From a virus (lineage: Duplodnaviria; Heunggongvirae; Uroviricota; Caudoviricetes): 57,194 nt of DNA. Position 1 is the first letter of the stretch. Each line of letters opens with the position of its first letter. Below are positions 10,751 to 57,194 of the stretch, in pieces. The position numbers were made by a program, and so were the translations under genes. The notes under the pieces were generated by a model. It was not told the DNA's origin. It did no database searches and saw only the letters and a program-made list of their open reading frames with translations. The DNA lies in the IMG/VR virus record IMGVR_UViG_2778261542_000002, positions 1 through 57,194 of that record; one strand, 5' to 3'.

Positions 10751-10780
10751 TTAAAGTCATTTAAAGCCACTTAAAGCAAT
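10751..10780. repeat. three tandem 10-bp repeats TTAAAG(T/C)CA(T/C) upstream of the alpA-alpha operon
   Basis: TTAAAGTCAT TTAAAGCCAC TTAAAGCAAT in helical phase; candidate operator. Confidence 0.3.
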
Positions 10781-10880
10781 TTGTAATTTTTATAGTGAAA
10801 TACAAATCGTTTCTTCTTATTCATTCCCGGCGAATTAATAAAAACAAACAGTAGTAAACAGCACAAAAAGTCCATGAGCG

Positions 10881-10985
10881 GGTGAACAGTGGTGAACAGA
10901 CGGTGAACAGTCATTACTGCGATTGTTCATCCTTTAACTTACTGTATTACTTATCTTTTTTATTAAGGTGAACAGAGGTGAACAG
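10881..10985. repeat. ori-like iteron cluster (five GGTGAACAG = TGTTCACC reverse complement)
   Basis: Three tandem GGTGAACAG at 10881-10910, two more at 10967-10985, plus inverted GATTGTTCATCC; lies ~4.8 kb from the crr cluster with alpha between, as in P4. Confidence 0.55.
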
Positions 10986-11063
10986 TAAAATATAAAAAAA
11001 CAAACAGTAAGCCGGTTTTTCCTGCGACCTTTTCCTGGCTTGCCGGTGTGAGGATGAGTCTCC

Positions 11064-11081
11064 TGTGTCAGGGCTGGCACA
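11064..11081 (+). promoter_or_regulatory. TGT-N12-ACA dyad, candidate Ogr/Delta activator site of the sid late promoter
   Basis: TGTgtcagggctggcACA centred ~80 bp upstream of the sid ATG; P2/P4 late promoters use this dyad. Confidence 0.4.
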
Positions 11082-11153
11082 TCTGCAATGCGTCGTGTTG
11101 CTGTCCGGTGTACGTCACAATTTTCTTAACCTGAAGTGACGAGGAGCCGGAAA

Positions 11154-11888: not shown

Positions 11889-12385
11889 TTTACTGCCCGT
11901 CGTGTGGACATGTTGCTCACACCCGTCGCGCACATTTCATGGACGATGGCACCAAGATAATGATTGCACAGTGCCGGAATATTTATTGCTCTGCGACATT
12001 TGAAGCGAGTGAAAGCTTTTTCTCTGACTGTAAAGATTCAGGAATGGAATACATTTCAGGCAAACAGAGATACCGCGATTCACTGACGTCAGCCTCCGGC
12101 AGCATGAAGCGCCCGAAAAGAATGCTTGTTACCGGATATTGTTGTCGGAGATGTAAAGGCCTTGCGCTGTCAAGAACATCGCGGCGTCTGTCTCAGGAAG
12201 TCACCGAGCGTTTTTATGTGTGCACGGATCCGGGCTGTGGTCTGGTGTTTAAAACGCTTCAGACCATCAACCGCTTCATTGTCCGCCCGGTCACGCCGGA
12301 CGAGCTTGCAGAAAGCCTGCATGAAAAACAGGAACTGCCGCCAGTACGGTTAAAAACACAATCATATTCGCTGCGTCTGGAATGA
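11885..12385 (+). CDS. delta: Delta-type late-gene transactivator (166 aa, two Ogr-like zinc-finger repeats)
   Basis: Two Cys clusters (CPSCGH...C..IYC and CCRRCKG...CTDPGCG), the P4 Delta duplicated-Ogr architecture; 166 aa. Confidence 0.8.
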   Translation: MIYCPSCGHVAHTRRAHFMDDGTKIMIAQCRNIYCSATFEASESFFSDCKDSGMEYISGKQRYRDSLTSASGSMKRPKRMLVTGYCCRRCKGLALSRTSRRLSQEVTERFYVCTDPGCGLVFKTLQTINRFIVRPVTPDELAESLHEKQELPPVRLKTQSYSLRLE

Positions 12386-12458
12386 GGGCTGCCGGTTAAC
12401 ACCGGCCGTCGCCGCACACCGTATTTTTATTCTTCAGCATGATGAGAAAGAGATAACG

Positions 12459-13031
12459 ATGGAAAGCACAGCCTTACAGCAGGCCTTTGACACCTGTCAG
12501 AATAACAAAGCAGCATGGCTGCAACGCAAAAATGAGCTGGCTGCGGCCGAACAGGAATATCTGCGGATTCAGTCAGGAGAAGGCAGAAACGTCAGTCGCC
12601 TGGACGAATTACGCAATATTATCGAAGTCAGAAAATGGCAGGTGAATCAGGCCGCCGGTCGTTATATTCGTTCGCATGAAGCCGTTCAGCACATCAGCAT
12701 CCGCGACCGGCTGAATGATTTTATGCAGCAGCACGGCACAGCACTGGCGGCGGCACTGGCACCGGAGCTGATGGGCTACAGTGAGCTGACGGCCATTGCC
12801 CGAAACTGTGCCATACAGCGTGCCACAGATGCCCTGCGTGAAGCCCTTCTGTCCTGGCTTGCGAAGGGGGAAAAAATTAATTATTCCGCACAGGATAGTG
12901 ACATTTTAACGACCATCGGATTCAGGCCTGACGCGGCTTCGGTGGATGACAGCCGTGAAAAATTCACCCCTGCGCAGAACATGATTTTTTCGCGTAAAAG
13001 TGCGCAACTGGCATCACGTCAGTCTGTGTAA
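12459..13031 (+). CDS. psu: Psu-like polarity suppression / capsid decoration protein (190 aa)
   Basis: 190 aa as in P4 Psu; last gene before cos; sequence begins MESTALQQAF, as I recall for P4 Psu. Confidence 0.75.
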   Translation: MESTALQQAFDTCQNNKAAWLQRKNELAAAEQEYLRIQSGEGRNVSRLDELRNIIEVRKWQVNQAAGRYIRSHEAVQHISIRDRLNDFMQQHGTALAAALAPELMGYSELTAIARNCAIQRATDALREALLSWLAKGEKINYSAQDSDILTTIGFRPDAASVDDSREKFTPAQNMIFSRKSAQLASRQSV

Positions 13032-13066
13032 AATTCCCCGAAAATCCTCCCGTTTTTACTGAAAAA

Positions 13067-13106
13067 AGCCATGCATCGATAAGGTGCATGGCTTTGCATG
13101 CGTTTT
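13067..13106 (+). terminator. putative terminator after psu
   Basis: 9-bp perfect stem AGCCATGCA/TGCATGGCT followed by a T-containing tract. Confidence 0.3.
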
Positions 13107-13195
13107 CCTGCCTCATTTTCTGCAGACCGCACCATTCCCGGCGCGGTCTGAGCGTGTCAGTGCAACTGCATTAAAACCGCCCCGCAAAGCGGGCG

Positions 13196-13214
13196 GGCGA
13201 GGCGGGGAAAGCAC
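13196..13214. other. cos site (P2/P4 19-nt cohesive end)
   Basis: Exact GGCGAGGCGGGGAAAGCAC, the P2/P4 cohesive-end sequence as I recall it, immediately after psu. Confidence 0.6.
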
Positions 13215-13334
13215 TGCGCGCTGTGGGTGCATAACCAAAAGTTTTGATGTCGTAAATATGCGCAAGATACTGGTTTCTGAAACTCGAGGTTGATATCTTA
13301 CTTGTCAAAAGGATATGAGATAAGGAGTGTATAA

Positions 13335-16076: not shown

Positions 16077-16083
16077 TTATTAA

Positions 16084-16107
16084 ATCATAGGGCGAAAGCC
16101 CTATGAT
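16084..16107. terminator. bidirectional hairpin between the convergent 913-aa gene and int
   Basis: Perfect 10-bp stem ATCATAGGGC/GCCCTATGAT with GAAA loop, T-rich flank. Confidence 0.4.
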
Positions 16108-17288
16108 TTTACTTTTATACCCCACCATGACATCAATTCTCTGCGTTGTTCTAAATAAATAGAACGATTATACGCCCGCCGTACTTCATTTTTATCTATA
16201 TGCGCTAAAGCTGATTCTATAATATCGGAATTAAAACCAGACTCGTTCAACGCTGTGCTAGCTATAGAACGAAGCCCATGAGCAACGAGTTTACCGCCAT
16301 AACCAATCCTTTTAAGAGCAGCATTAGCAGTTTGGCTATTCATAGGTTGTTTAGGATCATTCCTGCTGGGAAAAACATGTTCTCGGTGAGCGCTAATTGG
16401 CTTCATTACATCCAGAATCTCTAATGCCTGTGGTGATAAAGGAACAATGTGTTCCCGCTTAGCTTTCATCCGTTCGGCTGGAATAGTCCAGAGCTTCGTA
16501 TCGAGATCGATCTCTGCCCAACGGGCACCAGAGGCCTCAGAAGGGCGCACGAGCGTCAGGAGTTGCCATTCAATGAGACAGCGAGTCGGAACAGACAGAT
16601 TTGACATGACTAAAGAACGCATCAGCTTCGGCAATTCTTCTGGCCGCAGCGTCGGCATGTTTTGTTTTTTGGGCTTCTCAAAGGCCATTCCAATACCTGA
16701 TGCTGGATTGGCATCAATCAGACCAGTGTTTACGGCATAAATCATTATCTCGTTAATACGCTGCACTAGTCGACGTACAGTCTCAAGCGCTCCACGAGCT
16801 TTGATTGGTTCCAATGCTTCAACTAATATTCGGGCTTTAATTTGCTGAACGGGGATCTCACCGATGGCAGGGAATACATCTTTCTCCAATGAGCGCCAAA
16901 TGTCTTTTGCGTAATCAGGGGTAACGCTTTTACTTTTGAGCTGGAACCAGTTAGCGGCGACCATTGAGAAAATACTGTCCAGAGCGATTTGCTGCTGTTC
17001 CTCTGCAACTTCGGCCTGAATTTGTGGGTCAATTCCGTTGGCTAACAAGGCAAGGTAATCCGCTCTTAACCCTCGGGCGTCAGCAAGTGAAAGGGCGGGG
17101 AAAGCACCAAGCCCCATCATTGTCCGCTGTTTTGTCGCTGGACGTTGATAACGGAAACGCCAGAGCTTTTTCCCGCTGGTTTTCACTATCAGGAAAAGGC
17201 CATCGCCATCATGCAGAGTTAGATCCTTCTCTAACGCTTTAGCGCGAAGAACTTCGGTGTTGGTAAGGGGGCGTGTTGTCCGTGCCAC
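16101..17288 (-). CDS. int: P4-type tyrosine integrase (395 aa)
   Basis: Catalytic-domain boxes (LTLVRPSEASGARWAEIDL; HGLRSIASTAL...RAYNRSIY); adjacent to att core; GTG start. Confidence 0.9.
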   Translation of the reverse strand: MARTTRPLTNTEVLRAKALEKDLTLHDGDGLFLIVKTSGKKLWRFRYQRPATKQRTMMGLGAFPALSLADARGLRADYLALLANGIDPQIQAEVAEEQQQIALDSIFSMVAANWFQLKSKSVTPDYAKDIWRSLEKDVFPAIGEIPVQQIKARILVEALEPIKARGALETVRRLVQRINEIMIYAVNTGLIDANPASGIGMAFEKPKKQNMPTLRPEELPKLMRSLVMSNLSVPTRCLIEWQLLTLVRPSEASGARWAEIDLDTKLWTIPAERMKAKREHIVPLSPQALEILDVMKPISAHREHVFPSRNDPKQPMNSQTANAALKRIGYGGKLVAHGLRSIASTALNESGFNSDIIESALAHIDKNEVRRAYNRSIYLEQRRELMSWWGIKVKS

Positions 17289-17628: not shown

Positions 17629-18315
17629 TTACTTCTCATTTTCAAAGTCATCACGAATGTTAATTAGATCTGTAATCAAAGCGCCAACTTTAGTTGAAGG
17701 ATTTATCGAACCGTCTTTTTTGGCGGCATCTTCGACTCTTTTAGCATTGATTAATGCCGTATCGAGCCGATCTTGCAATTTATTAAATACACCTGATGCC
17801 TTTTTCTCATAATCTGGCATGTATTTTTTTAACTCAGCTAGCATTTGTGCGCCTTCACTTTTGCCTTTCTGAGGTGAAAATGATTTTCGGGTGTATCCAA
17901 AATGTAGTATCAGCCAGTACTCGAAACATGGTATGGAAGTTATAGCAACAAAAATCCCTTTTGGATTTAAGGAATTAATCCTGCTAAGAGCTTCATCATA
18001 GTTAGGGTGAGCGTCTCTATCAAAGACACAATAAACCTTATCATAAGGGTCGCTCCTTTTTTTTTCCGTATTATATTTTTCTTTTGCCCAAGATACCACA
18101 TTCATAGGGCTTGAGCCGCACTCTCCAGAAATCTCAACTATGCTTGCCGTGCTTATACGGCAATGTTTTATAAAATCTGTAAAATATGCGGGCTCAGTCT
18201 TCTCTCCCTCACAGACGATAAGAATTTTCTTCATTTGAGCTCGTGCTTTACTAACTCGTTTGAATTCATTATTACGCCGAGCCTTTCTTTTTTTGAACAG
18301 ATCTTCGCTTCCCAT
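17629..18315 (-). CDS. RloB-like protein (AbiLii-like partner of the ATPase)
   Basis: N-terminal ILIVCEGEKTEPAYF and CVFDRDAHPNYDE acidic motifs, read as RloB/Toprim-like; likely start is the ATG overlapping the upstream stop (TAATG), preceded by GGGAGAG. Confidence 0.65.
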   Translation of the reverse strand: MGSEDLFKKRKARRNNEFKRVSKARAQMKKILIVCEGEKTEPAYFTDFIKHCRISTASIVEISGECGSSPMNVVSWAKEKYNTEKKRSDPYDKVYCVFDRDAHPNYDEALSRINSLNPKGIFVAITSIPCFEYWLILHFGYTRKSFSPQKGKSEGAQMLAELKKYMPDYEKKASGVFNKLQDRLDTALINAKRVEDAAKKDGSINPSTKVGALITDLINIRDDFENEK

Positions 18316-19580
18316 TAATATCTCTCCCATTTCCCAATGAGTGGTAAAGCCCCATATCTACCGTCAAGATAAGAAGCTTCTAAATTCTCCCTTCCTTTTC
18401 TTGGACTAAAATCCGTAAGTGGGAAAAGATTTGTTTGCTTTGAATTGTCTTTTTCTACAAACCAAATCTGATCTCGTCTGAAAACATCTTGATTTAAAAT
18501 AGACGTCTCATGAGTTGTAAAGATTAACTGGGCACCATTCTTATTGATATTTTTATCGTGAAATAAACCTACAATAAACTCAACTAATTTGGGGTGTAAG
18601 TTATCATTTAATTCATCAATAAACAGGATGTTTCCTGTCTCGAGTGAATGTGATAAGGGACCCGCGAAACTAAAGATTTTTCTAGTTCCATGCGATTCAT
18701 CTTTTAAATCGAATGGAATTGGCTCTCCATCCTCATTATTATGAAGTGTTTTAATGACATATTCTTCCTTGCCTTGCATATTCTTAATCACTAGTTCCTT
18801 GATGGCTGCAGGCATATCATCAGGAAGAGCATTGGGATTGAATTTTTCTTTTGTTACATGAATGTCATCAATACCTACATCGGCAGCTTTTAAAAAATTG
18901 AGAATCTCATCTTTCTTATCATTTAAGCATTGCTTTGCACTGTAATCACTATCCCAACCTGTTAATTCAGTAAATTTAACTTTGTAATAAAACCAATCGT
19001 ATACAGGTTTTAGTTGTACACTGTTTAATTGTACCGCTGTAGAAAGAAAGAGCGCATTAGGCCTGGTTGATTTCAACCATGTTTGTTTTTCTCCTGTCAA
19101 CGATGGCCCCAACTCCCATTCATGGGTTTGTTTTTCTTCATCCCATAGACGTAAAAACCATTTTTGTGGTCTGCCTTTGGGGAATGCAAATAACCATTCG
19201 TCGTGAATAAAATCTTCTGTTGCAGAAAAACCATACTGGTATCTGATGCCTTCGGAAATAAAGTTAATTTCAAATTCAGATGGTTGATTAATCTTCTTTG
19301 AGTCTAGTCTAAAAGGCGTGATATCAAGTTTATCACCACTTTTATAACCTGTAGCAGACCGGACAATAAGTTCAGCCATAGTTGTAATAGCGTTAATAAT
19401 GTTTGATTTTCCGGCAGCATTAGGGCCATAAATCACAGCACTTTTAAGCAATTCAAGAGATTTAGGTTCATCAATACTGAACAGATTATTAGGCAAATCG
19501 TTAAGTTTTGATGCAACTAAACTCAGTGTTTGTTTCTCTGAAATAGATTTATAGTTTTGTACTGTAAACTCAATCAACAT
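18315..19580 (-). CDS. ABC/AAA-type ATPase (AbiLi-like)
   Basis: Walker A GPNAAGKSN, Walker B ILFIDELNDNLHP, H-loop-like QLIFTTHETS; AT-rich; translationally coupled to the RloB-like gene. Confidence 0.8.
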   Translation of the reverse strand: MLIEFTVQNYKSISEKQTLSLVASKLNDLPNNLFSIDEPKSLELLKSAVIYGPNAAGKSNIINAITTMAELIVRSATGYKSGDKLDITPFRLDSKKINQPSEFEINFISEGIRYQYGFSATEDFIHDEWLFAFPKGRPQKWFLRLWDEEKQTHEWELGPSLTGEKQTWLKSTRPNALFLSTAVQLNSVQLKPVYDWFYYKVKFTELTGWDSDYSAKQCLNDKKDEILNFLKAADVGIDDIHVTKEKFNPNALPDDMPAAIKELVIKNMQGKEEYVIKTLHNNEDGEPIPFDLKDESHGTRKIFSFAGPLSHSLETGNILFIDELNDNLHPKLVEFIVGLFHDKNINKNGAQLIFTTHETSILNQDVFRRDQIWFVEKDNSKQTNLFPLTDFSPRKGRENLEASYLDGRYGALPLIGKWERY

Positions 19581-19770: not shown

Positions 19771-20967
19771 TTACTTCTCAATTTTCATGTTCTCCGGATT
19801 TTTTGATACTTGGTCCTTACAAGCTGTCTTGCCATCATAGTCTACGAGATACGAACCATAATGCCTGAAAAGCATTTCCGGCCCTTTATGCCCCATTTGA
19901 GCTGCAAGCCAAAACAGATTTGCTCCTCGGCTGATATGGCTGGTGGCGAATGTATGCCTAGTTTGATATGGATTTCTGTATCGAATACCTGCTTTCCGTA
20001 ATGTTGGCACCCATGCTTTTTTCCTGATTGCATCAGCACTTGCCCAAGGCTTATTGGTCTTTGGGTCTTCAAAGACAGTAGCATCCTTCATGAATGTAAA
20101 TGGCTTCTGATTTATCAGCGCCAACATAGCCTCTTCTGTCAGTTCAACTTTACGAGTACCGGCTTTTGTCTTTGTTCCTTTGATAACACCGACAACACTT
20201 GCACTCTGGACATGGGCAGTTTTTCCAACAAAGTCGATATCACGCCATCTAAGGGCACATAATTCAGAACTACGCAGGCCTGTATGTATAGCGAACCGGA
20301 ACAGATTCTCCCATTGTTTGTTTCCGGCTGCTGCTAGTAATGCATCAACTTCTGTTGGTGATAGCGGATCAACCACGTAGCAGCTTTCTGCTTCTGACTT
20401 ATCACTTTGGTAGCGCGAAGCAGTTACCAACGATACGGGGTTAATTTGAAGTACCCCATCGGTTACGGCTTCATCAAGTGCTGACCGCAGGAAAGATAAC
20501 TGGTTGCGAATTGTTTTTAAGGTCGTTTTCTGGCTTTGAATCCACGCTTTCAGGATTGCTGGTGTTAATTCACTTGCAGGGCAAATGTGGAGTGAGGCTA
20601 ACGCACTGCGGCATTTTTTATAACCACCAATCGTTGAGGGTGAGAGTTTTCTCGTTTCGCAGATTTCAAGGTATTCGTCCAGGTACATTTTTACCGTTTT
20701 GCCTGCAGCAGCATTACCAAAAATTTTCAAACGAGCAGAACGGGGAAAATATTCCGCATAAATGAATGTTCCCCTTTCGATCTTATTATGAATTTCGCCG
20801 AGTGTGCGCTCGGCGTATTTAATGTTCTTTGGTGTTACTTCCAGATTGGAAAGAGGCTCACGACATTTAACTCCTTTGTAGGTGAAAGTTATATTGATCG
20901 TTTCGCCCTGGCGGTGTTTCCTGATTGTTACGCCGCGCGGTAGTTTGAGCAGTTTTGTCTGGCCCAT
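19771..20967 (-). CDS. int: phage tyrosine integrase (398 aa)
   Basis: Catalytic boxes TGLRSSELCALRWRDID and RHTFATS...LAAQMGHKGPEMLFRHYGSY. Confidence 0.9.
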   Translation of the reverse strand: MGQTKLLKLPRGVTIRKHRQGETINITFTYKGVKCREPLSNLEVTPKNIKYAERTLGEIHNKIERGTFIYAEYFPRSARLKIFGNAAAGKTVKMYLDEYLEICETRKLSPSTIGGYKKCRSALASLHICPASELTPAILKAWIQSQKTTLKTIRNQLSFLRSALDEAVTDGVLQINPVSLVTASRYQSDKSEAESCYVVDPLSPTEVDALLAAAGNKQWENLFRFAIHTGLRSSELCALRWRDIDFVGKTAHVQSASVVGVIKGTKTKAGTRKVELTEEAMLALINQKPFTFMKDATVFEDPKTNKPWASADAIRKKAWVPTLRKAGIRYRNPYQTRHTFATSHISRGANLFWLAAQMGHKGPEMLFRHYGSYLVDYDGKTACKDQVSKNPENMKIEK

Positions 20968-30274: not shown

Positions 30275-30844
30275 TCATTCTTTATCTTTAATTATAAGTT
30301 TCGATTTTTCATCATGCATTTTGTCTATCATAAAATACATACCTAATGCCGTTGTGTATATAATGTTGCATATGGTACTTAAATAAATAAACAAAAGTAA
30401 TGATTTCACTAGTGGATATGATGAAAGGTGTAACTCCTTGATGCTTGCGCTGGTTAGTTGAAGTGCGCCTCCAACGAAATACAGCGCGATACTCATAAAC
30501 GCTAAATAACCAAATAGATAAGTGAGGAATTTACGCCTTGTAAGTTTTTTACCTTTTAATACCGGAGGTATGCCATGCATAACTTCATCCATACCATCCT
30601 TACTGAAGGTTGCAACTGCAGCCATAGATGCAATGTAAAAACCAGATAGTATTTGAAGTATCCCGTTTACTAAAGACACAAGACTATCCTTCCCGAGAAG
30701 TGAGATGGTTTTCGGTAAGTAATAGATGGATAAAGTAATAATTGCAGCAGTGAAAATGGGTAAAACCCAGTCAAAAAATCGCTTCTCAGGATGCTTTATG
30801 CGTAGGTAGTCTATAGGTGTAAAAACCTTAGATAAAACATACAT
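30275..30844 (-). CDS. small four-pass membrane protein (189 aa) - cargo gene 2 of the Q-lysis cassette
   Basis: AAGGAGG Shine-Dalgarno before ATG at 30844; four hydrophobic ~20-aa segments; AT-rich; opposite strand to the phage late operon. Confidence 0.6.
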   Translation of the reverse strand: MYVLSKVFTPIDYLRIKHPEKRFFDWVLPIFTAAIITLSIYYLPKTISLLGKDSLVSLVNGILQILSGFYIASMAAVATFSKDGMDEVMHGIPPVLKGKKLTRRKFLTYLFGYLAFMSIALYFVGGALQLTSASIKELHLSSYPLVKSLLLFIYLSTICNIIYTTALGMYFMIDKMHDEKSKLIIKDKE

Positions 30845-30876
30845 ATATGCCTCCTTTTGACAGGTTTTCCATGCCT

Positions 30877-31812
30877 TCACTTTAACATAAAGTTTTGCAT
30901 TTTTGCGAGAAGTTCTTCGTGAAATGCTGTTTGGCAAACGGCAATTGTTGATGCCAACACTGCTTTTTCACGTTGTGCCAATTGTGCTGTTGCGAGTTCC
31001 TGTAAGCTCATTTCTTTTCCGATGGAAACAAGATCTGATGAAACGCGTTTATTTTTGTCTTTATAAGAAATTCTTAACATTGTATACTTTCTACCACGAA
31101 GTTTGTCATATGCAGACTTAATCGCCTTAATTGCACCCTCTCCGCGACGTATTTTTGTTGATAGCTTTAGTGTTTCTTCTTCAACCATTACTGTGCCATC
31201 ATCATCTAAAGAGTTATCTTTAAAGCGACGAGTAGCAGTAAGTCCACATAAATAACCAGTGGATAGAGATTGCTCAAGTGTTGTTGCAGCCAAAAAATCA
31301 ATGTCGAAAATAGGTCTGCACTTAAGTTCTTTTTTCCCTCCTGAACGGATAAAGGAAAAATTATTTTCTCGCAGGAAATAAGTTAAAGCTTGGGCTAATA
31401 AACCTCTGGTAATGCCCGGAACTTCTTCTAAAATTGCCTCATAACAATCTTGGAATGATGAGTCGCTCGGTCTTTTTTTTATAAGCACATGAGCAGAGTA
31501 CCCCATACCTTCATCATTTTGCTTTTTCTCAATTCTGGTTTCACCAGTTTTTATGTTGGAAAAGGCGGGATCAGAAGCATCTTTATTTATATATTGAAAA
31601 AGCAATTTCAGGTAATTTTCATCGTCTTTTATGGATAGCAATCTTATGACAGAACGTCCTTTGTTTAATTCGTAAACAGCTTCTCCTTTGTTATAGCGAT
31701 TTTTTAAAACAGGAATACAGTTTACTAAAGGCATGTCAGGTGCGTCATTAGGATACTTCTTTAAAGTAACCTGGCATTTGATCATGAAACGTTCATTATC
31801 TCCCAAGAGCAT
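30877..31812 (-). CDS. hypothetical soluble protein (311 aa) - cargo gene 1 of the Q-lysis cassette
   Basis: AT-rich ORF immediately upstream of the membrane-protein gene on the same strand; no motif confidently recognised. Confidence 0.6.
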   Translation of the reverse strand: MLLGDNERFMIKCQVTLKKYPNDAPDMPLVNCIPVLKNRYNKGEAVYELNKGRSVIRLLSIKDDENYLKLLFQYINKDASDPAFSNIKTGETRIEKKQNDEGMGYSAHVLIKKRPSDSSFQDCYEAILEEVPGITRGLLAQALTYFLRENNFSFIRSGGKKELKCRPIFDIDFLAATTLEQSLSTGYLCGLTATRRFKDNSLDDDGTVMVEEETLKLSTKIRRGEGAIKAIKSAYDKLRGRKYTMLRISYKDKNKRVSSDLVSIGKEMSLQELATAQLAQREKAVLASTIAVCQTAFHEELLAKMQNFMLK

Positions 31813-35118: not shown

Positions 35119-35613
35119 ATGGCTGGAACGGCGGGGCGTTCCGGGCGTCGCCCCAAGCCAACGGCGCGCAAGGCGCTGGCCGGAAACCCCGGCAAGCGAG
35201 CCCTGAATAAAGATGAACCTGTTTTTACGCCCATCAAAGGTGTTGAGCCACCGGAGTGGTTCGCTGAAGAAGATCTCCCTCTCGCCACGATCATGTGGCA
35301 ACTGACAACCAAAGAACTCTGCGGTCAGGGCCTGCTGTGCGTGACTGACCTCGCGGTGCTTGAGCGGTGGTGCGTGGCCTACGAGTTCTGGCGACGTGCC
35401 GTGAAAAATATTGCCAGACAGGGCAACACCATCACCGGTGCAATGGGCGGTATGGTCAAAAATCCGGAGCTGACCGCCAAAAAAGAACAGGAGTCCGAGA
35501 TGAGCAGTACGGGGGCAATGCTCGGACTCGACCCCAGCAGCCGCCAGCGTCTGATTGGCCTGGCGGGGAAGAAGAAAGCCACTAACCCGTTTCTGAAAAT
35601 TATCGAATCATGA
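35119..35613 (+). CDS. terminase small subunit (P27-family-like)
   Basis: N-terminus [14 protein letters not shown]; AGGAG Shine-Dalgarno; overlaps large-subunit start. Confidence 0.7.
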
Positions 35614-37343
35614 GCCGGAAATCTTACCCCAACGTAAATGCTGCAAATCAGTATGCCCGGGATGTCGTGCGCGGAAAGATTGTTGCCTGCCAGTTTGTGA
35701 TTCAGGCCTGCCAGCGCCATCTTGATGACCTGATGGCGGAAAAAAGTAAGTCGTTTCGTTACCGCTTCGACAAGGACCTGGCTGAACGGGCCGCCAAATT
35801 TATTCAGCTGTTGCCGCACACCAAGGGTGAGTGGGCATTTAAACGGATGCCCATCACGCTGGAGCCGTGGCAGCTATTTGTGATCTGCTGTGCGTTTGGC
35901 TGGGTCAATAAAGGCACCCGGTTGCGCCGCTTCCGGGAGGTGTATACCGAAATTCCCCGTAAGAACGGCAAATCGGCAATCTCTGCCGGTGTTGCCCTGT
36001 ATTGTTTTGCCTGTGATAACGAGTTCGGCGCGGAAGTGTATTCCGGTGCCACGACGGAGAAACAGGCGTGGGAAGTCTTTCGTCCGGCACGACTGATGTG
36101 TAAACGCACACCCATGCTGACGGAAGCGTTCGGGATTGAGGTTAACGCCTCAAACATGAACCGTCCGGAGGATGGTGCGCGGTTTGAACCGCTGATCGGT
36201 AACCCCGGTGATGGTTCATCACCCCACTGTGCCGTGGTGGATGAATATCACGAGCACGCCACAGATGCGCTTTACACCACGATGCTTACCGGGATGGGGG
36301 CGCGACGCCAGCCACTGATGTGGGCCATTACCACCGCCGGGTACAACATTGAGGGGCCGTGCTACGACAAACGGCGGGAAGTCATCGAGATGCTCAACGG
36401 CTCGGTACCAAACGATGAACTGTTCGGGATCATCTATACCGTTGATGAAGGTGACGACTGGACCGACCCGCAGGTGCTGGAAAAAGCCAATCCAAATATT
36501 GGCGTGTCGGTTTATCGCGAATTTTTGTTAAGTCAGCAGCAGCGTGCGAAAAATAACGCCCGTCTGGCAAACGTTTTTAAAACAAAACACCTCAATATCT
36601 GGGTGTCGGCGCGTTCGGCGTATTTCAACCTGGTGAGCTGGCAGAGCTGCGAGGATAAATCACTGACCCTTGAGCAGTTCGAGGGGCAGCCGTGCATTCT
36701 GGCCTTTGACCTGGCGCGTAAGCTGGATATGAACAGCATGGCGCGACTTTATACCCGCGAGATTGACGGTAAAACGCATTACTACAGTGTGGCCCCGCGT
36801 TTCTGGGTACCGTATGACACGGTGTACAGCGTCGAGAAAAATGAAGATCGCCGGACAGCCGAACGCTTTCAGAAATGGGTGGAAATGGGCGTCCTGACCG
36901 TTACCGATGGTGCAGAGGTGGATTATCGCTACATCCTCGAGGAGGCCAAAGCGGCGAACAAAATCAGCCCGGTCAGCGAGTCACCCATCGACCCCTTCGG
37001 GGCGACCGGGTTGTCACATGACCTTGCTGATGAAGACCTGAACCCCGTCACCATCATTCAGAACTACACCAACATGTCCGACCCGATGAAAGAGCTGGAA
37101 GCGGCAATTGAATCGGGGCGCTTTCATCATGATGGCAATCCCATCATGACCTGGTGTATCGGCAACGTGGTCGGCAAAACCATTCCGGGTAACGATGATG
37201 TGGTGAAGCCCGTCAAAGAGCAGGCGGAAAACAAAATCGATGGTGCAGTTGCGCTGATTATGGCGGTTGGCAGAGCCATGCTGTACGAGAAAGAAGACAC
37301 GCTGTCTGACCACATTGAGTCCTATGGGATCCGCTCGCTTTAA
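35610..37343 (+). CDS. terminase large subunit
   Basis: 577 aa; P-loop-like PRKNGKS; position between small terminase and portal. Confidence 0.9.
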
Positions 37344-37354
37344 CTGAGGTAATT

Positions 37355-37537
37355 ATGATCATGCTGATTCTCGCGCCTCTGGTGGGCGTGCTGGGGGCGC
37401 TTTTGCTGGCGTATGGTGCCTGGCTGATTTATCCCCCGGCGGGGTTTGTTGTTGCCGGGGCGTTGTGTCTGTTCTGGTCGTGGCTGGTGGCGCGATATCT
37501 CGACCGTACACAGTCGTCTGTCGGCGGAGGTAAATAG
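37355..37537 (+). CDS. small hydrophobic protein (60 aa)
   Basis: Two hydrophobic segments; fills the terminase-portal gap. Confidence 0.35.
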
Positions 37538-38778
37538 TGTTCTTTTCGGGATTATTTCAACGAAAAAGTGACGCACCGGTGACCACGCCAGCAGAGCTGG
37601 CGGATGCTATCGGGTTGTCCTACGACACCTATACCGGAAAGCAGATCAGCAGCCAGCGGGCCATGCGACTGACGGCGGTTTTTTCCTGTGTCAGGGTGCT
37701 GGCGGAGTCGGTCGGGATGTTGCCCTGCAACCTGTATCACCTGAACGGCAGCCTGAAGCAGAGAGCCACTGGCGAACGTCTGCATAAGCTGATCTCCACG
37801 CATCCCAATGGCTATATGACGCCGCAGGAGTTCTGGGAGCTGGTGGTCACCTGTCTGTGCCTGCGGGGAAACTTTTACGCCTACAAAGTGAAAGCATTTG
37901 GCGAAGTGGCTGAACTGCTGCCCGTCGATCCCGGCTGTGTGGTACCGAAGCTTAACAGTAGCTGGGAGCCGGTCTATCAGGTCACATTCCCGGATGGCTC
38001 CACGGATGTACTGAGCCAGGAGGATATCTGGCATGTGCGCACGCTGACGCTGGACGGACTGGTGGGGCTGAATCCCATCGCCTATGCCCGCGAGGCAATA
38101 TCGCTGGCGGCAGCGACCGAAGAGCACGGGGCCAGACTGTTCAGCAATGGCGCGGTGACGTCGGGTGTGTTGCGTACAGAGCAGACGCTGTCAGATCAGG
38201 CTTATGAGCGCCTGAAGAAAGATTTTGAGGAGCGTCACACCGGGCTTGGCAATGCTCACCGCCCGATGATCCTTGAGATGGGGCTGGACTGGAAGTCGAT
38301 GGCGCTGAACGCCGAGGACAGCCAGTTCCTGGAAACCCGCAAGTTTCAGCTTGAAGAAATCTGTCGTCTGTTCCGGGTGCCGTTGCACATGGTGCAGAAC
38401 ACCGATCGCGCCACCTTCAACAATATCGAAGAGCTGGGGCTGGGATTTATCAACTATTCACTGGTGCCGTATCTGACCCGCATCGAACAGCGGATCAACA
38501 CCGGACTGGTACGAAAAAGTAAGCAGGGCGTTTATTACGCCAAATTTAACGCCGGGGCGTTACTGCGCGGGGATATGAAGTCCCGTTTTGAAGCCTACGC
38601 CACCGGGATCAACTGGGGAATTTACTCTCCCAATGACTGCCGCGACCTGGAAGATATGAATCCACGTCCCGGTGGTGATGTCTATCTCACACCGATGAAC
38701 ATGACCACGAAACCCTCCGATGGCAGTAAAGCCGGTAAGCAGAAGGATAACGCCAATGCAGACGAAACAACGTCTTGA
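37537..38778 (+). CDS. portal protein (HK97-family-like)
   Basis: 413 aa, position after terminase and before prohead protease. Confidence 0.85.
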   Translation: MFFSGLFQRKSDAPVTTPAELADAIGLSYDTYTGKQISSQRAMRLTAVFSCVRVLAESVGMLPCNLYHLNGSLKQRATGERLHKLISTHPNGYMTPQEFWELVVTCLCLRGNFYAYKVKAFGEVAELLPVDPGCVVPKLNSSWEPVYQVTFPDGSTDVLSQEDIWHVRTLTLDGLVGLNPIAYAREAISLAAATEEHGARLFSNGAVTSGVLRTEQTLSDQAYERLKKDFEERHTGLGNAHRPMILEMGLDWKSMALNAEDSQFLETRKFQLEEICRLFRVPLHMVQNTDRATFNNIEELGLGFINYSLVPYLTRIEQRINTGLVRKSKQGVYYAKFNAGALLRGDMKSRFEAYATGINWGIYSPNDCRDLEDMNPRPGGDVYLTPMNMTTKPSDGSKAGKQKDNANADETTS

Positions 38779-39406
38779 TGTACCGCTGAGTCTGAAATCT
38801 GTCAGTGACTCCGGTGAGTTTGAAGGGTATGGCTCCGTCTTTGGTGTAAAGGACAGCCACGATGATGTGGTGATGTCCGGGGCATTTGCTGCTTCCCTGC
38901 GGGTGTGGAGTGACAGAAAAGCGTTACCTGCGCTGCTCTGGCAGCACCGCATGGATGAGCCCATCGGTGTTTACACCGAAATGAAGGAAGACGATGTCGG
39001 GCTTTACGTCAGGGGGCGGTTGCTCATTGATGATGATCCCCTGGCAAAACGCGCACATGCACACATGAAGGCCGGTTCGTTAACCGGCCTTTCTATTGGG
39101 TACGTCCTGAAGGACTGGGAATACGACCGGACGAAAGAAGCCTTTCTGCTGAAAGAAATCGACCTCTGGGAAGTCAGTCTGGTGACATTCCCGTCTAACG
39201 ACGAGGCGCGGATCAGCGACGTCAAGAACGCACTGGCCCGCGGGGAAATCCCCGAACAGAAAAAAATCGAAAGAGTCCTGCGTGATGTCGGACTCTCCCG
39301 TACCCAGGCCAAAGCATTCATGGCCGGGGGCTATGGCGCACTGTCCCTGCGCGACGCTGAGGATGTGGGCTCTGCACTGAATGCACTGAAAAATCTGAAC
39401 TTCTAA
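38756..39406 (+). CDS. prohead protease (HK97-family-like)
   Basis: GEFEGYGSVFGVKDSHDDVVMSGAF motif typical of HK97-type prohead proteases. Confidence 0.75.
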   Translation: MQTKQRLDVPLSLKSVSDSGEFEGYGSVFGVKDSHDDVVMSGAFAASLRVWSDRKALPALLWQHRMDEPIGVYTEMKEDDVGLYVRGRLLIDDDPLAKRAHAHMKAGSLTGLSIGYVLKDWEYDRTKEAFLLKEIDLWEVSLVTFPSNDEARISDVKNALARGEIPEQKKIERVLRDVGLSRTQAKAFMAGGYGALSLRDAEDVGSALNALKNLNF

Positions 39407-39420
39407 TCAGGAGAAATACG

Positions 39421-40626
39421 ATGGCAGTTGATATTAAAGATGTCGAACAGGTCGCGCAGGAGCTGCAGCAGAAGTTTGACGACTTCAAAGCAAAGAACGA
39501 CAAGCGCGTTGAGGCGATTGAGCAGGAAAAAGGCAAACTTGCCGGGCAGGTGGAAACCCTGAACGGAAAACTCAGCGAGCTGGAAAACCTCAAAAGCGAC
39601 CTTGAAAAAGAGCTGCTTGAGCTGAAACGTCCGGCAGGTGGTGCGCAAAATAAACTGGCCACCGAGCATAAAGAAGCGTTTGTGGGCTTCCTGCGTAAAG
39701 GCCGTGAAGATGGTCTGCGCGATCTGGAGCGCAAGGCATTACAGGTGGGCACCGATGAAGACGGTGGCTATGCCGTGCCGGAAGCGCTGGATCGCAACAT
39801 TCTGACCTTGCTGAAAGATGAAGTGGTGATGCGTCAGGAAGCCACGGTGATCACCGTTGGTGGTTCCGACTACAAAAAACTGGTGAATCTGGGCGGCACG
39901 GCTTCCGGATGGGTTGGCGAGACTGACGCGCGCTCCCAGACTGCCACCTCAAAACTGGGCCTGATTGAACCTTTCATGGGGGAAATCTACGGTAACCCGC
40001 AGGCCACTCAGAAAATGCTGGATGATGCCTTCTTCAACGTGGAGGCCTGGATCAACAGCGAGCTGGCGACCGAATTTGCTGAACAGGAAGAAATTGCCTT
40101 TACCACCGGCGATGGTACCAAGAAGCCGAAAGGGTTCCTGGCGTATGAATCCACGGATGAAACCGATAAGGTCCGGGCGTTCGGCAAACTTCAGCATATT
40201 GTATCCGGCGACGCGACGGCGGTGACCGCAGACGCCATTATCAAACTGATTTACACGCTGCGTAAGGCACACCGCACCGGCGCGAAGTTCATGATGAACA
40301 ACAATAGCCTGTTTGCCATCCGTCTGCTGAAAGACAGCGAGGGTAACTATCTGTGGCGTCCGGGGCTGGAGCTGGGGCAGCCGTCCTCTCTGGCGGGTTA
40401 CGGTATCGCTGAAAACGAACAGATGCCGGATATCGCCGCTGATGCGAAAGCCATTGCATTTGGTAACTTCAAACGGGGTTACACCATCGTTGACCGTATC
40501 GGCACCCGCATTCTGCGTGACCCGTACACCAATAAACCGTTTGTCGGTTTTTATACCACCAAGCGCACCGGCGGGATGCTGGTCGATTCGCAGGCCATCA
40601 AACTGCTGAAGATTGCAGCGGCGTAA
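39421..40626 (+). CDS. major capsid protein (HK97 fold, with N-terminal coiled-coil delta domain)
   Basis: 401 aa; N-terminal ~100 aa coiled-coil scaffold-like domain. Confidence 0.85.
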   Translation: MAVDIKDVEQVAQELQQKFDDFKAKNDKRVEAIEQEKGKLAGQVETLNGKLSELENLKSDLEKELLELKRPAGGAQNKLATEHKEAFVGFLRKGREDGLRDLERKALQVGTDEDGGYAVPEALDRNILTLLKDEVVMRQEATVITVGGSDYKKLVNLGGTASGWVGETDARSQTATSKLGLIEPFMGEIYGNPQATQKMLDDAFFNVEAWINSELATEFAEQEEIAFTTGDGTKKPKGFLAYESTDETDKVRAFGKLQHIVSGDATAVTADAIIKLIYTLRKAHRTGAKFMMNNNSLFAIRLLKDSEGNYLWRPGLELGQPSSLAGYGIAENEQMPDIAADAKAIAFGNFKRGYTIVDRIGTRILRDPYTNKPFVGFYTTKRTGGMLVDSQAIKLLKIAAA

Positions 40627-51969: not shown

Positions 51970-52896
51970 ATGCATCGTATAGACACGAAAACCGCGCAGA
52001 AGGATAAGTTCGGCGCGGGTAAGAACGGTTTTACCCGTGGTAACCCCCAGACCGGCACGCCTGCCACCGATCTGGATGATGACTACTTTGACATGTTGCA
52101 GGAGGAGCTCTGCAGCGTGGTGGAGGCATCCGGTGCCAGCCTGGAGAAGGGGCGGCATGACCAGCTGCTTACCGCGCTTCGTGCGCTGCTGTTAAGTCGC
52201 AAAAATCCGTTGGGCGATATCAAATCGGACGGCACGGTGAAAACGGCTCTTCAAAACCTTGGTTTGGGAGATACAAGCGGATACGTGGGACGCCGGCTGA
52301 GTACCCGGGCTTTCGCGTCATCAGGTACGTATACCCCATCACCAGAAACAAAACGGATCAGGGTCACAATAACGGGCGGCGGTGGCGGAGGGGGTGGCTG
52401 CCAGGCTATATCCAGTAACGAAACGTTTTTCGGTGCTGGCGGTGGGGCCGGAGGGACAGTAATCACCATACTGACCCCGACACAGAATAGTTATCCTGTC
52501 ACTATCGGCGCAGGTGGGGCCGGCGGCGTTGGTGCGACGAACGGCCTCAAGGGCGGTGATAGCTCGTTCGGATCGGTAATAGCCCCTGGTGGTGAAGGCG
52601 GCGGAAAAGTAGGAGTCACAAACACAAACGGCGGTAACGGAGGCGTACCGAATATTGGCGATATCCGCATCACTGGTGGAGATGGAGGCGACGGTCAGTC
52701 CGGGAATATCAGCGTCAGCGGTGAAGGCGGTGCATCGTACTGGGGAGGCGGTGGACGTGCAGGCGCTGGCGGTGGCGTTAGAGGCAGGGCATTTGGTTCA
52801 GGCGGAGGTGGTGCATACGATGCAGGTTATAGCGGAACCAGTATGACGGGCGGGAAAGGTGCTGATGGGGTTTGTATTATCGAGGAGTTTGCATAA
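51970..52896 (+). CDS. tail fibre protein, glycine-rich
   Basis: Poly-Gly tracts (GGGGGGGG, GGGAGG...); followed by a tail-fibre-assembly-like gene. Confidence 0.6.
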
Positions 52897-53306
52897 TGAA
52901 TGCGTCATATGCAGTTATTGAAAATGGGATGGTTGTGAATGTCATTGTCTGGGATGGCGAGGATGAATTCACTGTGCCGGATAATCTGCAGCTCATTAAT
53001 ATTTCTGATATCAGTGAGCAGCCCGGAATCGGCTGGGCGTATTCAGACGGGGTATTTACTGCGCCGCTCCCTCCGGAACGTTCTCATGATGAACTGGTAG
53101 CTGACGCTGAACAGAAAAAACAGTCGTTGATAGACGCAGCAATGGTCAATATCAGCGTGATTCAGTTAAAGCTGCAGGCCGGGCGCAAACTGACGCAAGA
53201 AGAAACTACCCGACTTAACGTTGTGCTGGATTATATCGACGCTGTGACGGCAACAGATACCAGCACCGCACCGGATGTCATCTGGCCTGAACTGCCGGAG
53301 GAGTAG
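52896..53306 (+). CDS. tail fibre assembly protein
   Basis: GAGGAG Shine-Dalgarno, TAATG overlap with the fibre gene; C-terminal ..DVIWPELPEE pattern. Confidence 0.6.
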   Translation: MNASYAVIENGMVVNVIVWDGEDEFTVPDNLQLINISDISEQPGIGWAYSDGVFTAPLPPERSHDELVADAEQKKQSLIDAAMVNISVIQLKLQAGRKLTQEETTRLNVVLDYIDAVTATDTSTAPDVIWPELPEE

Positions 53307-53465
53307 GCCATTCAATATCTGGCGCACTGGAGGTATCAACCAGCTCCAGTGCATCCAGATAATCCAGCCACAGATTAAACTGCACTTTTTATCATCAGAC
53401 AATCGTCCAGGCGCGAGCCTGGATGCTGGCATCTCTGCCCAATTTAAATTTGAGAGGTAATTATG

Positions 53466-54020
53466 TTAACAGTTAATCCACCAGTATGTGCCGGGTGCCT
53501 GCGGGTAAGTGGCGGCGGCAACCTCGTGAACCATCCCCCAATCCAGAGCTGTGGAGGCATTGGCTATGGTGGCGGCGGAGATAACCTCCTTCCACTCATT
53601 GCGGCTCTTACTGAGCTCAATCTGACTCTCCAAAATATCGACAAAACGCTCCAGGTCATTATTGAGACACGCGCTCCACTCACTGACGCGTGAGTGATCC
53701 ACGCTTGGGCCCATCAAGCCCCAGTGAAAAGGATGCAGTAAGAACCGACTCCCAGGATTCGCCTTACGTTCAGACCCTGCAAGAAAAATGATATTAGCGA
53801 CTGATTCAACATTGCTAAGGTTATGGGTCTTTACTGGGATTGGTAGGGCCTTTAGAAAGTGATAAGCAGTAAAACCTGCAACGAGGTCACCGCCCGGACT
53901 GGAAATGTAAATGTTTAACTCAGTCGCCCCCTGATTGATAGCTCCAAGGCAATTGCTAATTAAAGCGTTAACGGTGGACTGATTTACGGGCACCGTGAAA
54001 TTCATAGTATGCAGCATCAC
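53466..54020 (-). CDS. Clp-protease-fold (ClpP-like) serine peptidase, 184 aa
   Basis: IYISSPGGDLVAGFTAYHFLKALPIPVKTHNLSNVESVANIIFLAGSERKANPGSRFLLHP aligns by eye with the ClpP core (IYINSPGG...AAS..GKR...RVMIHQP), including catalytic Ser and His positions. Confidence 0.6.
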   Translation of the reverse strand: MMLHTMNFTVPVNQSTVNALISNCLGAINQGATELNIYISSPGGDLVAGFTAYHFLKALPIPVKTHNLSNVESVANIIFLAGSERKANPGSRFLLHPFHWGLMGPSVDHSRVSEWSACLNNDLERFVDILESQIELSKSRNEWKEVISAATIANASTALDWGMVHEVAAATYPQAPGTYWWINC

Positions 54021-54129
54021 TATCTCCTTGTTTAGTTAGTGGACACATTACCTTGGGAGCAATAAAAAACATAACGCATACTGCATGCTTAGTTGGTGAC
54101 CGGCGATCTAAGTTTAGCAAGGATGCATA

Positions 54130-54528
54130 TCTGAAGGCGATACGCTGGTGGTCTGAAAGCGTGACCGCCTCGGTCGCAGCATGCGACATCTTGTTGGGTT
54201 AGTGGAGGAACTGCGGGAGAAAGGTGTTAACTTCCGGAGCCTGACGGATAGCATCGATACGAGTACGCCTATGGGGCGCTTCTTCTTTCATGTGATGGGT
54301 GCCCTGGCTGAAATGGAACGAGAACTGATTGTTGAACGAACAAAAGCTGGCCTGGAAGCTGCTCGCGCACAGGGACGAATTGGTGGACGACGTCCCAAAC
54401 TTACACCAGAACAATGGGCACAGGCCGGACGATTAATTGCATCAGGTGTTCCTCGCCAGAAGGTGGCGATCATCTATGATGTTGGTATATCGACACTGTA
54501 TAAGAAGTTTCCGGTCGGAGATAAATGA
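54130..54528 (+). pseudogene. pin: Pin/Gin-type DNA invertase, 5-prime truncated with in-frame TGA
   Basis: Upstream frame reads EGDTLVV*KRDRLGRSM (TGA where invertases have Trp), then RHLVGLVEELREKGVNFRSLTDSIDTSTPMGRFFFHVMGALAEMERE...HTH; N-terminal catalytic Ser region absent. Confidence 0.7.
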
Positions 54529-54585: not shown

Positions 54586-55455
<870 letters not shown>

Positions 55456-55760: not shown

Positions 55761-57194
55761 ATGTCTGAATTTGAAGTGTTGGCACAGCATCTGCTGAAGG
55801 AAGCCGAGGCGGAAGAAAAGCTGCGACAGGAAAATGATAAAAAGCTTATCGAGAAAGTGCTGGAAATCTATGATCAGAAGTATGTGGCTGAATTACTGAG
55901 AAAAGTCGGAAAAAATGAGTGGAGCCGTGAAACCATTAACCGCTGGATTAATGGCAAGTGTTTACCAAAATCGTTGACTTCAGTAGAAGAGTCTCTTCTG
56001 CGTAAGATGCTACCAGAACCACCTGCAAACCATCCGGAATATGCTTTCCGCTTCATTGACTTATTTGCTGGAATTGGAGGGATACGGAAAGGTTTTGAGG
56101 CCATTGGAGGTCAGTGTGTTTTTACCAGTGAATGGAATAAAGATGCTGTGCGTACATACAAGGCCAACTGGTTTAACGATGAACAGGTGCATAAATTCAA
56201 TCTCGATATTCGGGAAGTCACGCTGAGTGATAAAACCGATGTATTGGAAACGGATGCTTATGCATATATTGATGAGCATGTGCCGGATCATGATGTGCTT
56301 CTTGCGGGGTTCCCGTGCCAGCCATTTAGCCTTGCTGGTGTTAGTAAGAAAAACTCACTTGGTCGTGCGCATGGTTTTGAATGTGAAGCACAAGGAACAC
56401 TTTTTTTTGACGTGGCACGTATTATACGAGCAAAAAAACCGGCAATTTTTGTGCTGGAAAATGTCAAAAATCTGAAGAGCCATGATAAGGGTAAAACTTT
56501 CAAAGTCATTATGGAGACCCTTGACGAGCTGGGCTACGAAGTTGCCGATGCTGCAGAAATGGGAAAAAACGATCCAAAGATTATCGATGGGAAGCATTTT
56601 TTGCCTCAGCATCGTGAACGCATTGTTCTGGTCGGATTTAGACGAGATCTGAATATTCACAAGGGGTTTACCTTGCGTGATATCAGTCGTTTTTATCCGG
56701 AACACCGCCCATCATTTGGTGAATTGCTGGAGCCTGTAGTCGACAGTAAATATATACTTACGCCAAAACTATGGGAGTACCTTTATAACTACGCCAAAAA
56801 GCATGCAGCCAAGGGGAATGGTTTTGGCTTTGGGTTGGTCAATCCTGAGAATAAGGAAAGCATTGCACGCACACTTTCTGCCAGATATCACAAAGACGGA
56901 TCAGAAATTCTTATTGATCGTGGTTGGGATATGGCAACGGGAGAGGCTGACTTTATGAATGAGAGTAACCAGGCTCGTCGACCACGCAGGCTGACTCCCC
57001 GAGAGTGCGCACGCCTTATGGGGTTTGAAAAACCTGGAGGGAAACCATTCCGTATTCCGGTTTCAGATACTCAGTCATATCGGCAGTTCGGTAACTCCGT
57101 TGTGGTGCCAGTATTTGAAGCCGTTGCCAGACTTCTGGAACCCTATATCCTCAAAGCTGTTTCTGCTGATGCTGGTAAGACTGGGCAGCCTTGA
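55761..57194 (+). CDS. dcm: DNA cytosine-5 methyltransferase, Dcm family
   Basis: Motifs [36 protein letters not shown]; near-colinear with E. coli Dcm as I recall it but clearly diverged; GGAGG before ATG 55761; stop is the last base of the window. Confidence 0.8.

Follow-up and report, generated by a model that had tools for sequence, protein, structure and literature searches.

A short ClpP paralogue gene in the place of a Pin-invertible tail fibre segment in an e14-like prophage of Escherichia coli

The stretch of DNA analysed here (57,194 nt, IMG/VR record IMGVR_UViG_2778261542_000002; hereafter the window) is a segment of the Escherichia coli chromosome, 99.9% identical across the region to strain EC1722-1. 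From about 19.8 kb onwards it is occupied by an e14-like prophage, which in EC1722-1 borders ssrA. On the minus strand, between the tail fibre genes of this prophage and the remnant of its invertase gene pin, lies a gene for a short paralogue of the protease subunit ClpP (53466-54017, 183 aa). The listed open reading frame (ORF) extends to a GTG at 54020 and has 184 aa, and the residue numbers given below are those of this ORF. To judge from the sequence, the true start is almost certainly the ATG at 54017, because a Shine-Dalgarno motif AAGGAG lies 6 nt upstream of it (54024-54029, minus strand) and because 183 aa is the length of nearly all homologues; the motif is kept in a related copy of the gene in E. 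coli 100416 (locus L065), and the same ATG is annotated as the start in the RefSeq record of the 99.9%-identical genome.

Comparisons of sequence profiles and of the predicted structure agree on the nature of the product. The sequence-only reading of this region had recognised in the ORF a Clp-protease core with the serine and the histidine in place, and the searches bear this out: Pfam CLP_protease (PF00574, peptidase S14) matches residues 7-169 with 49.7 bits against a cutoff of 20.2 (E 5.2e-13), and a profile of the family matches the ClpPs in PDB with E-values of 1e-24 to 1e-30 and 9UXT, the structure of ClpP1 from Pseudomonas plecoglossicida (PpClpP1), with 7e-64 over residues 3-182 (BLASTP: 42% identity, E 3e-47). 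The AlphaFold2 (AF2) model (predicted local distance difference test score, pLDDT, 94.1) shows the alpha/beta fold of ClpP with its handle helix. Foldseek places 9uxt_A at rank 1 (template modelling (TM) score 0.93/0.93, root-mean-square deviation 1.8 A, 183 columns), and the other solved ClpPs, including 1yg6 from E. coli, reach TM 0.80-0.83. Profile, PHROG and structure matches are all of the ClpP type, and none indicates a variant of a tail fibre or of a fibre assembly protein. On the profile matches and the predicted model the product is beyond doubt a ClpP-fold protein.

Inspection of the alignment reveals that this ClpP is not of the canonical kind. Ser73 and His96, which align with Ser97 and His122 of E. 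coli ClpP, are invariant in 50 of 50 family members, and the third residue of the triad, Asp171 in E. coli ClpP, is Ala here (Ala in 37, Ser in 8 and Pro in 3 of the same 50). The chain starts at the equivalent of E. coli ClpP residue 25, with no counterpart to residues 1-24, i.e. to the N-terminal axial loops, by which the pore is gated and the unfoldase contacted. At the ten positions which we take to form the pocket for the IGF/LGF loops of ClpX and ClpA, seven are no longer hydrophobic (F49G, Y60N, F82A, I90H, F112K, L114N and L189A), and the hydrophobic character is kept only at L48, Y62 and M92 (L here). The score against the canonical clpP equivalog NCBIfam TIGR00493 is 28.2 bits, below the cutoff of 308.6, and all PRK models of ClpP are also far below their cutoffs. 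The protein lacks the Ser-His-Asp triad, the axial loops and most of the hydrophobic docking pocket of a canonical ClpP, and it possesses the features of the PpClpP1 type, namely about 183 aa, the N-terminal truncation, Ser73/His96 and a non-acidic third residue. It belongs, intact and kept by selection, to the family of short ClpP paralogues of which PpClpP1 (9UXT) is the type, and is not a canonical ClpP. We are highly confident of this identity, and of the replacement history set out below. The loss of the Asp, of the N-terminal loops and of most of the docking pocket, as well as the membership in the 9UXT family, had escaped the sequence-only reading. Two family-wide motifs have no counterpart in canonical ClpP: where the handle helix begins stands D108-H109-x-R111-x-x-E114, which hardly varies, and residues 178-182 form a WW(V/I) tail at the C-terminus. 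They might serve in contacts between rings or provide a substitute for the third catalytic residue.

The position of the gene is best understood by comparison with strain CH423 (locus L011), which carries a sister e14-like prophage with an intact invertible segment. The order there is the constant part of the fibre gene, a crossover site, the variable end, tfaE, an inverted tfa', an inverted alternative fibre end, a second crossover site and pinE; the intact pinE is followed by the same GIY-YIG gene (PD-T4-3) that follows the pin remnant in the window. The suggestion that the window carries an e14-type tail module proved correct, in that ymfQ, stf and tfa are 97% identical to the CH423 prophage as far as the crossover site (52271). 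The match resumes at 53121-53383, which comprises the two convergent 3' ends of the chaperone genes, and again from 54128 on. Between the breakpoints 53383/53384 and 54127/54128, determined by blastn against L011 and the e14 prophage of K-12, lies a replacement segment of 744 bp without e14 homology (53384-54127), substituting for 952 bp of L011 (4082-5033). With these 952 bp the prophage has lost the greater part of tfa', the alternative fibre end and the right crossover site, together with the promoter and codons 1-51 of pin. Thus the ClpP-like gene indeed stands where CH423 has the right half of the invertible segment and the 5' end of pin. No microhomology is evident at the breakpoints of the 744-bp segment.

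What is left of the switch on either side is fragmentary. The sole leftover of the alternative arm, which the sequence-only reading did not mention, is a piece of tfa', the inverted alternative chaperone gene, that amounts to its final ~35 codons (about 53278-53385, minus strand); the translation of this remnant, ending in NLWLDYLDALELVDTSSAPDIEWPTPPAVQAR before the stop codon, matches the C-terminus of the L011 tfa' product up to the end of the e14 homology at 53383, and RefSeq annotates it as a pseudogene. The left crossover site of the former Pin-invertible segment (AAACCTTGGTTTGGGAGATA, 52254-52273, plus strand) is the sole survivor of the 20-nt inverted pair that flanks the segment in L011 (2898-2917 and 4799-4818): in the window the site occurs in a single copy, with 2 mismatches to the L011 sequence and 0 occurrences expected by chance. 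The invertase had been described as a pseudogene without its catalytic N-terminus and with a TGA in place of a conserved Trp codon, and both parts of this description hold. A tblastn search with L011 PinE finds codons 52-184 only (54128-54528, plus strand), where the homology begins at 54127/54128 (PinE residue 52) and continues at 92% identity as far as the stop at 54528; the Trp61 codon in LVVWKLDRLGRSM has become an in-frame TGA (TGG to TGA, 54154-54156). The first 51 codons, with the catalytic Ser, are gone, and in Pfam the remnant covers only positions 79-144 of the Resolvase profile, plus HTH_7. No intact invertase was found anywhere in the window, the only other trace being a 57-aa fragment at 1709-1879 (plus strand; 68% identity to PinE residues 38-94). 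This fragment closely precedes an AIDA-type autotransporter gene (2158-5187) and may be left over from a further switch for inversion or phase variation. Because one crossover site is left and there is no enzyme, the fibre switch is dead, with the fibre locked in one orientation.

The surviving fibre genes are themselves mosaic. The tail fibre gene (51970-52896, plus strand) has the constant e14-type N-terminal part up to 52271 and then a glycine-rich variable end; residues 119-305 of its product match Pfam Gly_rich_2, and PHROG tail fibre families are matched as well. The variable end was swapped separately, exactly at the crossover site, for the glycine-rich domain, which shares 44% identity with the E. 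coli 100416 fibre. The tail fibre assembly (chaperone) gene tfa (52872-53306, plus strand; Pfam Caudo_TAP, 3.4e-21) is chimeric: its C-terminal half is similar to e14 TfaE (residues 69-143, 79% identity to L011 TfaE), and its N-terminal part is foreign and resembles a 60-aa ORF of E. coli 100416. RefSeq labels the equivalent of this gene partial.

Within the 744 bp, the ClpP-like cassette proper (53430-54079, minus strand) consists of the gene, 36 bp downstream and 59-62 bp upstream, and is 87.6% identical over 651 bp to a copy in E. coli 100416, which lies after a glycine-rich fibre gene with no invertase nearby. We considered and rejected the arrival of the cassette and the glycine-rich fibre end as one recent block, with the fibre 44% and the cassette 88% identical to L065. 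In an alignment of upstream regions, conservation is seen only between the two E. coli alleles. The flanks at 53384-53465 and 54021-54127 occur only in 25 E. coli genomes with the same junction, apart from a partial match in strain 100416. A plus-strand 76-aa ORF antisense to the gene (53463-53693) has no Pfam match and is taken as spurious; an overlapping 73-aa ORF has no match in PADLOC.

Among 5426 complete E. coli genomes, 25 have the junctions of the window with both unique flanks, and the other genomes lack them; the allele concerned is nearly clonal, at 99% identity or more. The same junction is found at no fewer than two chromosomal sites, beside ssrA as in the window and on the paoD side in ST540 (locus L027). 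This distribution points to one ancestral replacement event, followed by spread with the phage. Some allele of the family is carried by about 159 of the 5426 genomes (~3%); the gene is uncommon without being unique, which the sequence-only reading did not see.

Analysis of the wider family reveals two kinds of genomic context. An exhaustive profile search gave 265 clusters at 50% identity (E <=1e-30), nearly all of 180-200 aa. Copies in Pseudomonas and Massilia reside in conserved chromosomal neighbourhoods without phage genes, next to a purine permease and an aldo-keto reductase, an HIUase and a deacetylase, or DUF2795 and LigD. All members sampled in Enterobacterales, as well as one in Chromobacterium, stand alone in a prophage or temperate phage, always antisense to the flanking late genes. 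The gene occurs (i) at the junction of the lysis cassette and terminase in lambdoid prophages of Klebsiella, Leclercia, E. coli and others, (ii) beside the chaperone gene tfa in P2-like prophages of Enterobacter, (iii) between the tape-measure and DNA-circularisation genes of Mu-type tails in Pantoea, (iv) after a glycine-rich fibre gene in Chromobacterium and E. coli 100416, and (v) directly after an 82-aa Arc-family gene, in the mnt position divergent from arc-ant, in the P22-like phage phiv205-1, the APEC O1 prophage, PhiR12 and EC.P3 (PhiR12_1 carries lambda-type tail genes). Since unrelated prophages carry the family as an isolated antisense gene at these five further kinds of position, the gene is acquired cargo, a one-gene moron of temperate phages in Enterobacterales, as had been suspected from the sequence of the window. 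No conserved partner gene was found among the neighbours across ~30 prophage loci, and the Arc-family gene is linked only in the P22-like/lambdoid subset.

In this subset the ClpP-like gene overlaps the stop codon of the Arc-family gene by 1 nt (L015, 3756-4540; L025, 4716-5500; L016; L017), an arrangement that suggests translational coupling in a transcript for lysogeny maintenance. In P22, orf59a and the exclusion gene sieA follow mnt on the strand expressed in the lysogen. Genes for a SocA/Panacea-domain protein and a YafO toxin adjoin the ClpP-like gene in the mnt-linked phages. Prophages of Leclercia (L022/L023) possess two ClpP-fold genes (43-897 and 6001-6540), one for a 282-aa head-module protease between portal and capsid genes and the other for the short antisense paralogue at the lysis-terminase junction; this pair shows that the head protease and the short paralogue have distinct functions.

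Strong purifying selection marks the gene as functional: the ratio of nonsynonymous to synonymous substitution rates (dN/dS) is 0.09 in the comparison with the strain 100416 allele (90% identity) and 0.055 in that with an Enterobacter allele, and the reading frame is intact in every copy examined. In ST540 the gene is intact, with identical junctions, at a different chromosomal site. The prophage there (L027, 1-8621) is an eroded copy of the same element, with the terminase fused to a tail-terminator fragment, truncated tail and chaperone genes, and IS1 after pin.

The remainder of the prophage comprises an integrase gene (19771-20967), an HK97-type head module with large terminase, portal, S78 prohead protease and major capsid protein (35610-40626), and a Mu-type baseplate with ymfQ. 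The HK97-type S78 protease gene (38720-39406) lies between the portal and capsid genes, and because the prophage has this protease of its own, capsid maturation does not depend on the ClpP-like gene.

Downstream of the pin remnant there follow the PD-T4-3 single-gene defence system with a GIY-YIG domain (54586-55359, minus strand; PADLOC 2.7e-140, Pfam LEM-3_GIY-YIG) and the Dcm-type cytosine methyltransferase of a type II restriction-modification pair (55761-57194, plus strand; Pfam DNA_methylase 4.7e-78, PADLOC MTase_II), whose endonuclease lies just past the end of the window, before ssrA (annotation of L001, region 10962-13638). The cargo after pin varies in sister prophages, e.g. mcrA in K-12 e14, and IS1 with a hypothetical gene in ST540. 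Defence genes are also found upstream. A P4-like satellite (6216-17288) carries genes for primase (6216-8549, minus), Ash (9748-10383, minus), Psu (12459-13031, plus) and integrase (16101-17288, minus); between psu and int, at 13335-16076, is a gene for a 913-aa Mrr_cat nuclease fused to a STAND NTPase, which has no match in PADLOC and may be an uncatalogued Avs-like defence protein. An AbiL pair (17629-19580, minus strand; AbiLi 4e-101, AbiLii 3e-29) separates the integrases of the satellite and the prophage, and two antisense prophage genes (30275-31812, minus strand) match the PADLOC candidate PDC-M53 (A 1e-17, B 2.7e-39).

What the ClpP-like protein might do is best approached from PpClpP1, the homologue with a solved structure. 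PpClpP1 is a homotetradecamer with an axial pore of 42.7 A; in its "S73-H96-P151" triad the Ser and the His are essential and the third residue is dispensable, and its peptidase activity is 13-fold below that of the canonical ClpP paralogue (PMC12900304). Alone it degraded neither casein nor GFP-ssrA, and it did not pull down ClpX; together with canonical ClpP it forms a stable heterotetradecamer with higher peptidase activity and slightly higher ClpX-dependent degradation (PMC12900304). The word "phage" does not occur in that paper.

From these observations the sequence of events can be reconstructed. In an ancestor of the e14-like prophage, a 0.74-kb piece with the ClpP-like gene replaced 0.95 kb, locking the fibre in one orientation, after which what was left of pin decayed. 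By analogy with PpClpP1, the protein would form heptameric rings of the ClpP type that are unable to bind the unfoldases ClpX and ClpA, and each of them may pair with a host ClpP ring; the resulting hybrid tetradecamers would have a single face competent for ClpX/ClpA. Such hybrids could alter the rate or the range of ClpXP/ClpAP proteolysis in the lysogen. The prophage would benefit by lysogenic conversion, of which superinfection exclusion or the control of lysogeny is the most plausible form, because both the positions of the gene, in cargo and exclusion slots, and its neighbours point there. On balance we lean towards the general explanation that the gene provides an accessory ClpP ring of the PpClpP1 family, which would tune host Clp proteolysis in the lysogen. 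The hybrid-ring mechanism, extrapolated from the 9UXT study, falls in our judgement slightly short of an even chance. Defence or exclusion as the selected role is a tentative proposal that we regard as rather doubtful. We are equally hesitant about the more specific idea of an unfoldase-blind, gate-less ClpP ring serving as a single-gene device of the lysogen that would cap host ClpP and rewire ClpXP/ClpAP for exclusion or lysogeny control.

Several points weigh against the accessory-ring explanation. A scan for the sigma-70 consensus revealed no convincing minus-strand promoter upstream of the gene, and the proposed expression in the lysogen derives from the orientation of the gene and from the mnt linkage in other phages. 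Pairing with E. coli ClpP is extrapolated from a homologue that is only 42% identical and belongs to a chromosomal clade. PADLOC-DB v2.0.0 contains no family that matches the protein at E up to 0.1, and the literature searched holds nothing linking the short ClpP family to phages or defence. That defence genes adjoin the gene is no more than guilt by association, and its neighbours vary between contexts.

Among the alternatives, the one that survives best is a protease that would act alone against phages. Without host ClpP, a gate-less barrel would break down phage proteins that are unstructured or have just been injected, or else a host factor, and would thereby confer anti-phage protection or exclusion. 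The homologue has an ungated pore and Ser/His-dependent peptidase activity of its own, PD-T4-3 and the restriction-modification system adjoin the gene in a window dense in defence genes (AbiL, the PDC-M53 candidate pair and the Mrr-STAND protein), and in P22-like phages the gene takes the position of orf59a/sieA after mnt. However, the weak peptidase activity of PpClpP1 and its failure to degrade casein or GFP-ssrA when alone count against a self-sufficient protease, as do the absence of a match in PADLOC and of a phenotype in the literature searched; we consider this alternative unlikely.

Less likely still is a poison or decoy subunit, which by co-assembly with host ClpP would lower ClpXP/ClpAP activity and so keep a prophage protein stable (for instance a repressor, antitoxin or lysogeny regulator) or weaken those responses of the host that depend on proteases. 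With the Asp and most of the ATPase-docking pocket lost, hybrids would offer fewer faces to an unfoldase, ClpX is not bound by the homologue, and in several phages the gene is probably co-transcribed with mnt, the repressor gene for lysogeny maintenance. Yet the only hybrid tested was more active, not less, and the invariance of Ser73/His96 speaks for preserved catalysis and against a dead decoy.

We find it very improbable that the gene is a neutral passenger, brought in by illegitimate recombination and persisting without a role only because it is recent. The junction allele is rare and nearly clonal, and its surroundings are decaying (the pin pseudogene, the tfa' remnant and the partial tfa), as a passenger would have it, but purifying selection between alleles is strong, the frame has stayed intact even in the eroded ST540 prophage, and the family is retained across many unrelated prophage backbones. 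The weakest alternative, likewise very improbable, is a relic head maturation protease of the ClpP type, left over or still used in capsid processing: phage head maturation proteases share the ClpP fold, the Ser/His motifs and significant profile matches with the protein (phrog_94, its best PHROG match, 1.6e-27; NCBIfam Clp_rel_HeadMat, NF045542, 2.8e-13), and one phage record annotates a homologue in this way, but the 50.2 bits of the NCBIfam match are far under the cutoff of 120, the prophage has its S78 protease, the gene is never in a head module and lies here after the tail fibre genes and opposite to them in strand, there is no scaffold or targeting extension, the best viral (BFVD) structures (<=23% identity, TM ~0.8) are no closer than cellular ClpPs and more distant than 9UXT, and the dN/dS of 0.09 excludes a decaying relic.

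The accessory-ring explanation, if true, would have consequences beyond this locus. To our knowledge, E. coli is the textbook organism with one ClpP, encoded by a single clpP. The substrates of ClpXP/ClpAP include lambda O, the Mu repressor, antitoxins, RpoS and ssrA-tagged proteins, and the system handles several regulators of phages and lysogeny. The ~3% of complete E. coli genomes with a family member gain from a prophage a second, atypical ClpP subunit, and if hybrid barrels with host ClpP form, a mobile element would be tuning a central regulatory protease. Neither the 2023 PADLOC catalogue nor the literature searched contains such a way for a prophage to confer immunity or to manipulate its host, and the PpClpP1 family would then be recast as having a mobile, phage-borne branch. 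In that literature we found neither the phage-borne branch nor its presence in E. coli; biochemical study of the family is confined to a fish pathogen and did not take into account that the lineage has a large branch carried by phages. The repeated use of cargo slots that appear to be expressed in the lysogen, together with the adjoining defence genes, makes the gene a candidate for a single-gene exclusion or defence function, and the locus offers a clean, dated example of a fibre-switching segment frozen by the acquisition of cargo. Nothing here is categorically new; the gene is a well-defined candidate for manipulation of a central host protease by a prophage.

Comparison with known systems helps to place both the locus and the protein. 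The backbone is that of the segments inverted by Pin, Gin and Cin (the e14 P-region, Mu G and P1 C), with a constant fibre part, a crossover site at the boundary between constant and variable parts, convergent tfa genes and pin immediately downstream, in a tail region 83-97% identical to e14-type prophages. Unlike these segments, the window has one crossover site, no alternative fibre end, and an invertase that lacks its catalytic third and contains a stop codon. The overwriting of half of a Pin-invertible segment by cargo is ordinary prophage mosaicism, resolved unusually cleanly. With the exclusion genes of P22 immI (sieA, orf59a) the likeness is one of place, since in P22-like and lambdoid E. 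coli phages the ClpP-like gene takes the equivalent post-mnt position; SieA has no sequence relationship to the ClpP-like protein, exclusion is suggested by position alone, and the gene in the window is without mnt linkage. PpClpP1 agrees with the protein in beginning at the first core beta-strand and having 183 aa, in Ser73/His96 at identical positions and in the non-acidic third residue, which is Pro there and Ala here; PpClpP1 and its relatives in Pseudomonas and Massilia are chromosomal, in conserved housekeeping neighbourhoods, whereas the window gene and the enterobacterial relatives sampled are prophage cargo. The working model itself is taken from the accessory ClpPs of other bacteria, such as Pseudomonas aeruginosa ClpP2 with ClpP1 (PMC13056064) and Listeria ClpP1/2 (PDB 4RYF), where a second subunit that does not engage the unfoldase alters the output of ClpXP by pairing with the canonical ring, as the prophage protein may do. 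Those accessory subunits are encoded by the host, full-length or nearly so and regulated by the cell, whereas the one described here, only ~20% identical to them, is supplied by a mobile element.

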